The notes beneath the pieces are model-generated. The model worked only from the letters and a program-made list of their open reading frames with translations, searched no databases and was not told where the DNA came from. Position numbers and translations under genes: made by a program. This document shows, piece after piece, positions 23,902-26,072 of a stretch of 64,000 nt of DNA. The stretch comes from Cetorhinus maximus (lineage: Eukaryota), in contig NC_135907.1 in assembly GCF_964194155.1 (NCBI RefSeq), positions 21,204,001 to 21,268,000 on the forward strand. Reading direction: 5' to 3'. Position 1 is the first letter of the stretch, and the number at the start of each line of letters is the position of its first letter.

Positions 23902-26072
<2,171 letters not shown>

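Follow-up and report, generated by a model that had tools for sequence, protein, structure and literature searches.

Has a ferritin of the basking shark (Cetorhinus maximus) lost a ligand of its ferroxidase site, and if so, how did the change arise and what would the altered chain do? We analyzed 64,000 nucleotides of contig NC_135907.1 (positions 21,204,001 to 21,268,000), hereafter called the window, which holds a minus-strand tandem array of four-exon ferritin genes, with exon 1 present nine times and the set of exons 2–4 ten times. In copy 4 (minus strand, ATG at 26072), the consecutive codons are AAC (26009-26007), CGG (26006-26004), AGG (26003-26001), TTC (26000-25998), and TAT (25997-25995), and the central three (25998..26006) encode Arg26-Arg27-Phe28 in place of Leu-Glu-Leu, as read from the codons and from a read contig. 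Residues are numbered here as in human H ferritin; the same three residues are 23-25 in the shark numbering, and the alignment to human H chains pairs shark residue 24 with E27, which Table 1 of PMC10114856 gives as a ferroxidase ligand. The Leu-Glu-Leu motif (CTG/TTG GAG CTC/CTT) is present in seven of the nine exon-1 copies of the window, and Arg-Arg-Phe in the other two. The initial annotation had proposed that E27 is replaced by Arg within an intact open reading frame, and the codons and the alignment bear this out. The copy 4 protein, P0001, is NCBI entry XP_078387836.1 of the basking shark.

The second Arg-Arg-Phe gene, which had been overlooked, is copy 6 (ATG at 37297). Its exon 1 is identical to that of copy 4 at 102/102 positions, and sequence and pattern searches place the same three codons at 37223..37231 on the minus strand. 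Exact and degenerate pattern searches of the whole genome of the shark confined Arg-Arg-Phe to these two places, and thus the variant is real in sequence, as had been claimed, but not unique to copy 4. A 201-nt contig of run X1, which is possibly the assembly's own sample, covers 25970-26170 with no differences at a depth of 145.8, about twice that of the six other X1 contigs listed (61-91). In run X3, from the same sample, exact contigs flank the variant site on both sides, and none crosses it. An assembly or base-calling artefact could be argued from these facts, since the assembled animal itself may be the source of the only contig across the site and the second run lacks one. Nevertheless, we regard an artefact as practically negligible: the spanning contig is exact and has roughly double depth, the variant occurs at two loci that lie 11 kb apart and differ by 3.2% in their non-coding DNA, and a related state, Arg-Lys-Leu, is found in another species.

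Both variant genes are structurally complete. Copy 4, on the minus strand, consists of exon 1 (25971..26072; 34 codons, followed by a GT donor), exon 2 (25072..25218; E61, E62, and H65 kept, private R49C and R63W substitutions, and a shared Met86 at the exon end), exon 3 (24422..24547; E107 kept), and exon 4 with the stop codon (23902..24057; D131, E134, and Q141 kept). A TATA box lies 76 nt upstream of the ATG (26142..26148, minus strand), the leader is devoid of an IRE, and the polyadenylation signal AATAAA is at 23820..23825 (minus strand). The copy 6 gene (35105..37297, minus strand; exons 37297-37196, 36445-36299, 35761-35636, and 35260-35105) also has an intact open reading frame and keeps R49 and R63. 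In both genes, the frame is open, the introns are bounded by GT-AG, and a TATA box and an AATAAA signal are present. These elements are a weak sign of life, because the TATA box is also present in many broken copies. The two genes lie in duplicated segments, 22942..27144 with copy 4 and 34133-38364 with copy 6, which are 95.6% identical over 4253 columns. A promoter motif common to most array copies, TGATGTCA, reads TGATATCA in copy 4 (window ~26187-26194, minus strand) and is unchanged in copy 6. A G-rich minisatellite upstream of copy 4 (window ~27440-28340) has a similar stretch upstream of copy 6 (near 38800-39600), and was duplicated along.

Would the copy 4 protein fold as a ferritin? 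P0001 matches the ferritin domain PF00210 and keeps Y34, E61, E62, H65, E107, and Q141, together with the carboxylates D131 and E134 of the 3-fold channel; among the hallmarks of an active H/M-type chain (Glu27, Y34, E62, H65, E107, and Q141), only the site-A ligand Glu27 is absent, replaced by Arg. The AlphaFold model, built on a 77-sequence alignment, has a pLDDT of 89.8 and five helices (11-39, 46-72, 93-120, 124-154, and 161-172), which correspond to the four-helix bundle and short C-terminal helix of the animal 24-mer ferritin fold. The model matches mitochondrial ferritin with a Z score of 27.1 and an rmsd of 0.8 over 168 residues, and H/M ferritins with a Z score of 27. The modelling of the bundle called for by the initial annotation thus predicts a normal ferritin subunit, albeit by a method that is insensitive to point mutations. 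The accompanying concern that Arg26 might upset the fold is weakened: of 118 ferritin representatives that were aligned (147 examined), five have Arg or Lys at position 26, and E27 is intact in four of these five. In addition, the solved PDB structures 1RCD/1RCI, labelled “L FERRITIN”, have Leu-Lys-Phe at 26-28, and therefore a solved ferritin is known to accommodate a basic residue 27 followed by Phe28.

How did Leu-Glu-Leu become Arg-Arg-Phe? The two differ at four ungapped positions. The initial annotation had preferred a compensated frameshift. In this reading, one T was lost and one purine was gained four bases on, by two indel events. A gapped alignment is feasible, and blastn and the read alignment picked one for some paralogues; the changes are also clustered at 26-28. 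A T deletion with a G insertion would yield Arg-Arg-Leu, from which Arg-Lys-Leu and Arg-Arg-Phe are one transition away each, and the path length is equal to that of the substitution route. Pairs of compensatory frameshifts are real but rare in vertebrates, with 6/624 candidates surviving stringent filters according to PMC8935012. However, the “−1/+1” view is just another possible alignment, and the aligners gapped this purine-rich spot for ordinary paralogues as well. A frameshift path would pass through a null allele and would still require an extra substitution for Phe, while E27K has repeatedly arisen in the family by a single substitution (two broken array copies, P0033, and P0038).

The relatives of P0001 offer a likely intermediate step. 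Its 90% cluster contains two more members, the white-shark protein XP_041033696.1 (P0003) and P0002, and both have Arg-Lys-Leu at 26-28, which is two substitutions from Leu-Glu-Leu and two transitions from Arg-Arg-Phe. P0002 (MBS2599540.1) is a Salmonella-labelled, intronless 172-aa open reading frame on a 777-nt contig; it is likely a mislabelled shark cDNA or retrocopy, and would hint that the Arg-Lys-Leu type was transcribed. A second Salmonella-labelled shark-type ferritin, P0190 (MBS2599940.1), on a 308-nt contig, is likewise probably mislabelled or contaminating. In the array-type protein set (190 from 230; a partial sample of the best 120 of 717 matches, with at most 15 members from each cluster), Arg26 is limited to 3/187 proteins, precisely P0001, P0002, and P0003, and Met86 in 2/189, P0001 and P0003, while E27 is kept in 181/187. 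In this sample, a related state was recovered in P0003 and P0002, and no Arg-Arg-Phe beyond P0001. A quick protein tree groups the four R26 sequences (copies 4 and 6, P0003, and P0002) with an SH-aLRT of 90. When columns 26-28 are masked, P0003 does not join copies 4 and 6 (backbone support mostly <40), and thus their common descent rests on a few rare characters.

The indel and substitution rates of the locus itself bear on the route of the change. Outside the coding DNA, copies 4 and 6 differ by 116 substitutions and six one-base indels. With rates from this locus, the estimated odds favor four substitutions over two indels by ~90-100:1 with the Arg-Lys-Leu outgroup and by 3-22:1 without it, provided that the white-shark codons are minimal. 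The scarcity of indels relative to substitutions and the Arg-Lys-Leu relatives favor an origin by substitution. Like the pCFM pairs of PMC8935012, copies 4 and 6 have a short stretch that is alignable as −1/+1; here, an observed intermediate state explains it better, and on minimal white-shark codons four substitutions via Arg-Lys-Leu suffice, with no need for two frameshifting indels. We therefore consider the compensated frameshift very improbable, as Arg-Lys-Leu is the natural midpoint of the four-substitution path. As far as these comparisons go, the path was likely stepwise, from Leu-Glu-Leu through Arg-Lys-Leu to Arg-Arg-Phe, and the loss of E27 likely predates the split of the basking and white sharks. 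Other searches added no further record: four of four other-species runs (X5, X9, X10, and X12; organisms B and C) had no site-crossing contig with Arg-Arg-Phe or Arg-Lys-Leu, although contigs can show presence only; a metagenome scan for the motif gave 0 matches, as did a search of the shark's own genome, run without a positive control, for a retrocopy in which the Met86 exon 2 is joined to exon 3.

An orphan exon 1 at G000:C30:21108488 (Q22, Leu-Lys-Leu) was considered as an in-genome intermediate and rejected: its flanks group with those of other copies and not with copies 4 and 6, and it is counted as an independent E27K. The gene model P0166 (XP_078387937.1; L005, L021; Leu-Lys-Leu with W63) matches this orphan exon joined to exons 2–4 of the gene at 21126269, ~20 kb apart. 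It appears to be chimeric, and so is not an independent Leu-Lys-Leu record.

Are copies 4 and 6 maintained, or are they on the way to becoming pseudogenes? Since the duplication, they have diverged by 3.2% in non-coding DNA (116 of 3644 sites) and by 1.1% in coding DNA (6 of 531). Only four non-synonymous changes are present, compared with 13.4 expected from all of the non-coding DNA (P=0.002) or 10.4 expected from the introns alone (ratio 0.39, P=0.02), while the two synonymous changes agree with the 2.6-3.4 expected; coding indels number 0 against ~2.5 expected (P=0.08). Over five pairs of array copies with alignable introns, the same ratio is 0.20-0.45 for three canonical pairs and 1.2 for the degenerate pair 7/9. 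The Arg-Arg-Phe pair thus behaves like the constrained copies, which points to moderate constraint, although the changes are few (four) and gene conversion may bias the count. Copies 7 and 9 (window 40945-43507 and 53707-56270) have intact open reading frames and share F36S, W90Q, L112Q, and P124H (shark numbering); they are likely decaying, as their mutual ratio of observed to expected non-synonymous changes, 1.2, corresponds to the neutral rate.

The main rival is slow decay, in which copies 4 and 6 would be redundant products of a birth-and-death array whose ligand was lost by drift and whose stop codon is yet to come, the protein being a harmless passenger or unstable. The setting makes this a real possibility, albeit on the unlikely side. 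In the 264 kb around the window, the array holds 29 exon-1 copies, of which 17 belong to intact four-exon open reading frames and 12 lie outside them, in broken or partial genes. E27 is kept in 15 of the 17 intact copies, the variant is limited to two genes of the genome, and the remaining E27 changes are in broken or orphan copies (two broken or partial array copies have E27K, and an orphan C2 exon has E27V). Ligands have been lost in other intact copies as well, namely E61G in copy 1 (exon 2, window 2617-2763) and H65N in the gene at G000:C30:21086332, and the white-shark P0003 lacks H65, having D65. Constraint in the array is relaxed overall (mean pN/pS 0.51-0.55, uncorrected), and the branch leading to copies 4 and 6 carries 13 non-synonymous and 4 synonymous changes from the majority codon, with a near-neutral pN/pS of 0.81-0.83; their exon 1 has nine differences, compared with the array mean of 3.5. 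Against decay stands the deficit of non-synonymous changes between copies 4 and 6, obtained with the same test that calls the pair 7/9 neutral. Moreover, four open reading frames from at least two species carry the altered site, and one of them is the intronless Arg-Lys-Leu record. Finally, a stretch of 6 nt holds four non-synonymous changes (P 0.001-0.002 in a post hoc simulation, uncorrected for 17 copies). This clustering also counts against decay, but in itself fits either local selection or chance.

Which known ferritin do copies 4 and 6 resemble? The initial annotation had compared copy 4 to the mammalian L chain (FTL), and the two do share a residue other than Glu at 27 and a kept E107. 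However, mammalian L has Y27, K62, G65, and E141, while copy 4 has R27, E62, H65, and Q141; as E62 is kept, the K62-E107 bridge of mammalian L is impossible. In the quick tree, mammalian L forms a separate clade, and copies 4 and 6 fall within the clade of the shark array (SH-aLRT 95), with 88% identity to shark chains that have E27. Mammalian L is therefore the wrong model, since E62 and H65 are shared with the amphibian chain instead.

The closest match is the amphibian L ferritin of PDB 1RCD/1RCI, which we take to be that of the bullfrog. It too has a basic residue 27, Phe28, and intact E62 and H65, and it differs in having Leu26 where copies 4 and 6 have Arg26, and in having lost site B (Q107 and S141), where they keep E107 and Q141. 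Amphibian L chains are ferroxidase-inactive and serve as structural or nucleating subunits in mixed cages. The K27-type L proxies P0279 and P0303 lie on branches distant from the array proteins of sharks (quick tree), which argues that the likeness to amphibian L is convergent and not a matter of descent. A third comparison is FTHL17, an H-derived paralogue that lacks ferroxidase activity, is multi-copy in mouse, and is expressed in germ cells (PMC7760355, PMC13149808). Its location is partly nuclear. It would be a functional analogy for copies 4 and 6 if the shark array is ovarian, but it is mammalian, X-linked, and inactivated by E62K (with E61D) according to PMC7760355, while copies 4 and 6 keep E62 and are changed at 27. 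Lacking defining features of each, copies 4 and 6 appear from their sequences to belong to none of the three. More broadly, PMC8395497 describes ferritins with lost ligands as widespread among invertebrates. Among the literature listings searched, we found no paper describing a shark ferritin without E27, although the supplements of the Greenland shark preprint could bear on the point.

Comparable ferritin expansions are present in many sharks. The Greenland and white shark clusters are large tandem arrays, like the one that holds copies 4 and 6, and the Greenland shark preprint describes ovary-specific expression for the largest (bioRxiv 10.1101/2024.09.09.611499). In the basking shark, the array is followed by three divergent ferritin genes. 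An Rfam search covered the window and 15 of the 20 tiles fetched around it, and detected no IRE in the window or in the array tiles among them. The only one detected is that of the canonical H-like gene at G000:C30:21314557 (L049:6717-6752, minus strand), one of these three divergent genes. A divergent intact ferritin that adjoins the array at G000:C30:21292182 (minus strand; L047:4081-4182 and 694-840, L046:9016-9141 and 5451-5606) keeps E27 and E62 and carries E61K, H65Q, and E140K; with its long branch, it is a candidate for an older L-like shark chain. Other chromosomes hold retrocopies without introns as well as smaller ferritin clusters that are partly broken (L016 and L022 on C8; L055-L061 on C2 and C15), and open reading frame fragments at window 14631-15098 and 16501-17126 resemble a retroelement endonuclease and reverse transcriptase. 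Ferritins of 264-267 aa recur in Chiloscyllium, Hemiscyllium, and Heterodontus (P0004, P0189, P0191, P0193, P0194, P0196, P0199, P0201, and P0202). The high score of P0004 suggests a repeated N-terminal half, which is either a real fusion or a model artefact.

With modest confidence, we lean toward the reading that copies 4 and 6 encode a moderately constrained subunit that arose by convergence and is predicted to be expressed and impaired as a ferroxidase. The part of the initial annotation that described an independently arisen, catalytically impaired L-like subunit thus survives as the best reading of the sequences, while its likeness to mammalian L does not. We infer the following course of events, including the order of the mutations, the loss of activity, the expression, and the co-assembly. 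Copies 4 and 6 likely belong to a sub-lineage of lamniform ferritins in which Glu27 was lost through successive point mutations. Leu-Glu-Leu would have changed to Arg-Lys-Leu before the basking and white sharks split, and Arg-Lys-Leu to Arg-Arg-Phe in the basking shark, with the gene duplication afterwards. From ferritin chemistry, a positive side chain at position 27 would remove one Fe ligand and repel Fe(II) from site A, so that rapid di-iron oxidation would be abolished or become much slower; site B (E107 and Q141), E61/E62/H65, and the 3-fold channel (D131 and E134) remain intact. Arg27 might also pair with E62 or E107, as the initial annotation proposed. The chain, which is predicted to fold, would then join mixed cages with the many E27-bearing products of the array, probably in the ovary, as a minority subunit with a structural or nucleating role by analogy with the amphibian L chains.

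Could the chain still be a working ferroxidase? E61, E62, H65, and site B might compensate while Arg27 swings away, so that the rate is merely tuned; the retention of all of the remaining ligands (Y34, E61, E62, H65, E107, and Q141) and the continued purifying selection after the duplication agree with this. Mutants of E27 lose most of the fast oxidation. E27 is a listed ligand that is kept almost throughout the array-type proteins (181/187, from the best 120 of 717 matches), a basic residue at this position marks the inactive amphibian L ferritin, and the white-shark relative additionally has D65. We therefore consider a working ferroxidase quite improbable, and return to the ferroxidase-impaired subunit.

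What would such a subunit mean? In its strongest form, a lamniform L-type ferritin would have been re-invented within an ovarian array: selection would have driven Lys27 and then Arg27-Phe28, in convergence toward the motif of amphibian L, the type would have been kept since before the basking/white shark split, and it would tune mineralisation in mixed oocyte cages. We consider this version unlikely; if true, it would provide a natural one-step intermediate from H to L, in which site A is dead while site B is still intact. If copies 4 and 6 are decaying, they represent an ordinary event of a birth-and-death array, and either way they offer no evidence for a rare compensated frameshift. If instead the chain is expressed and assembled, a ferroxidase-deficient ferritin would have originated independently by the amphibian route with site B left intact, which would make it a natural single-site test of the contribution of Glu27 and of how L-type chains begin. 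The known ferritin arrays of sharks would then be more than a set of dosage copies.
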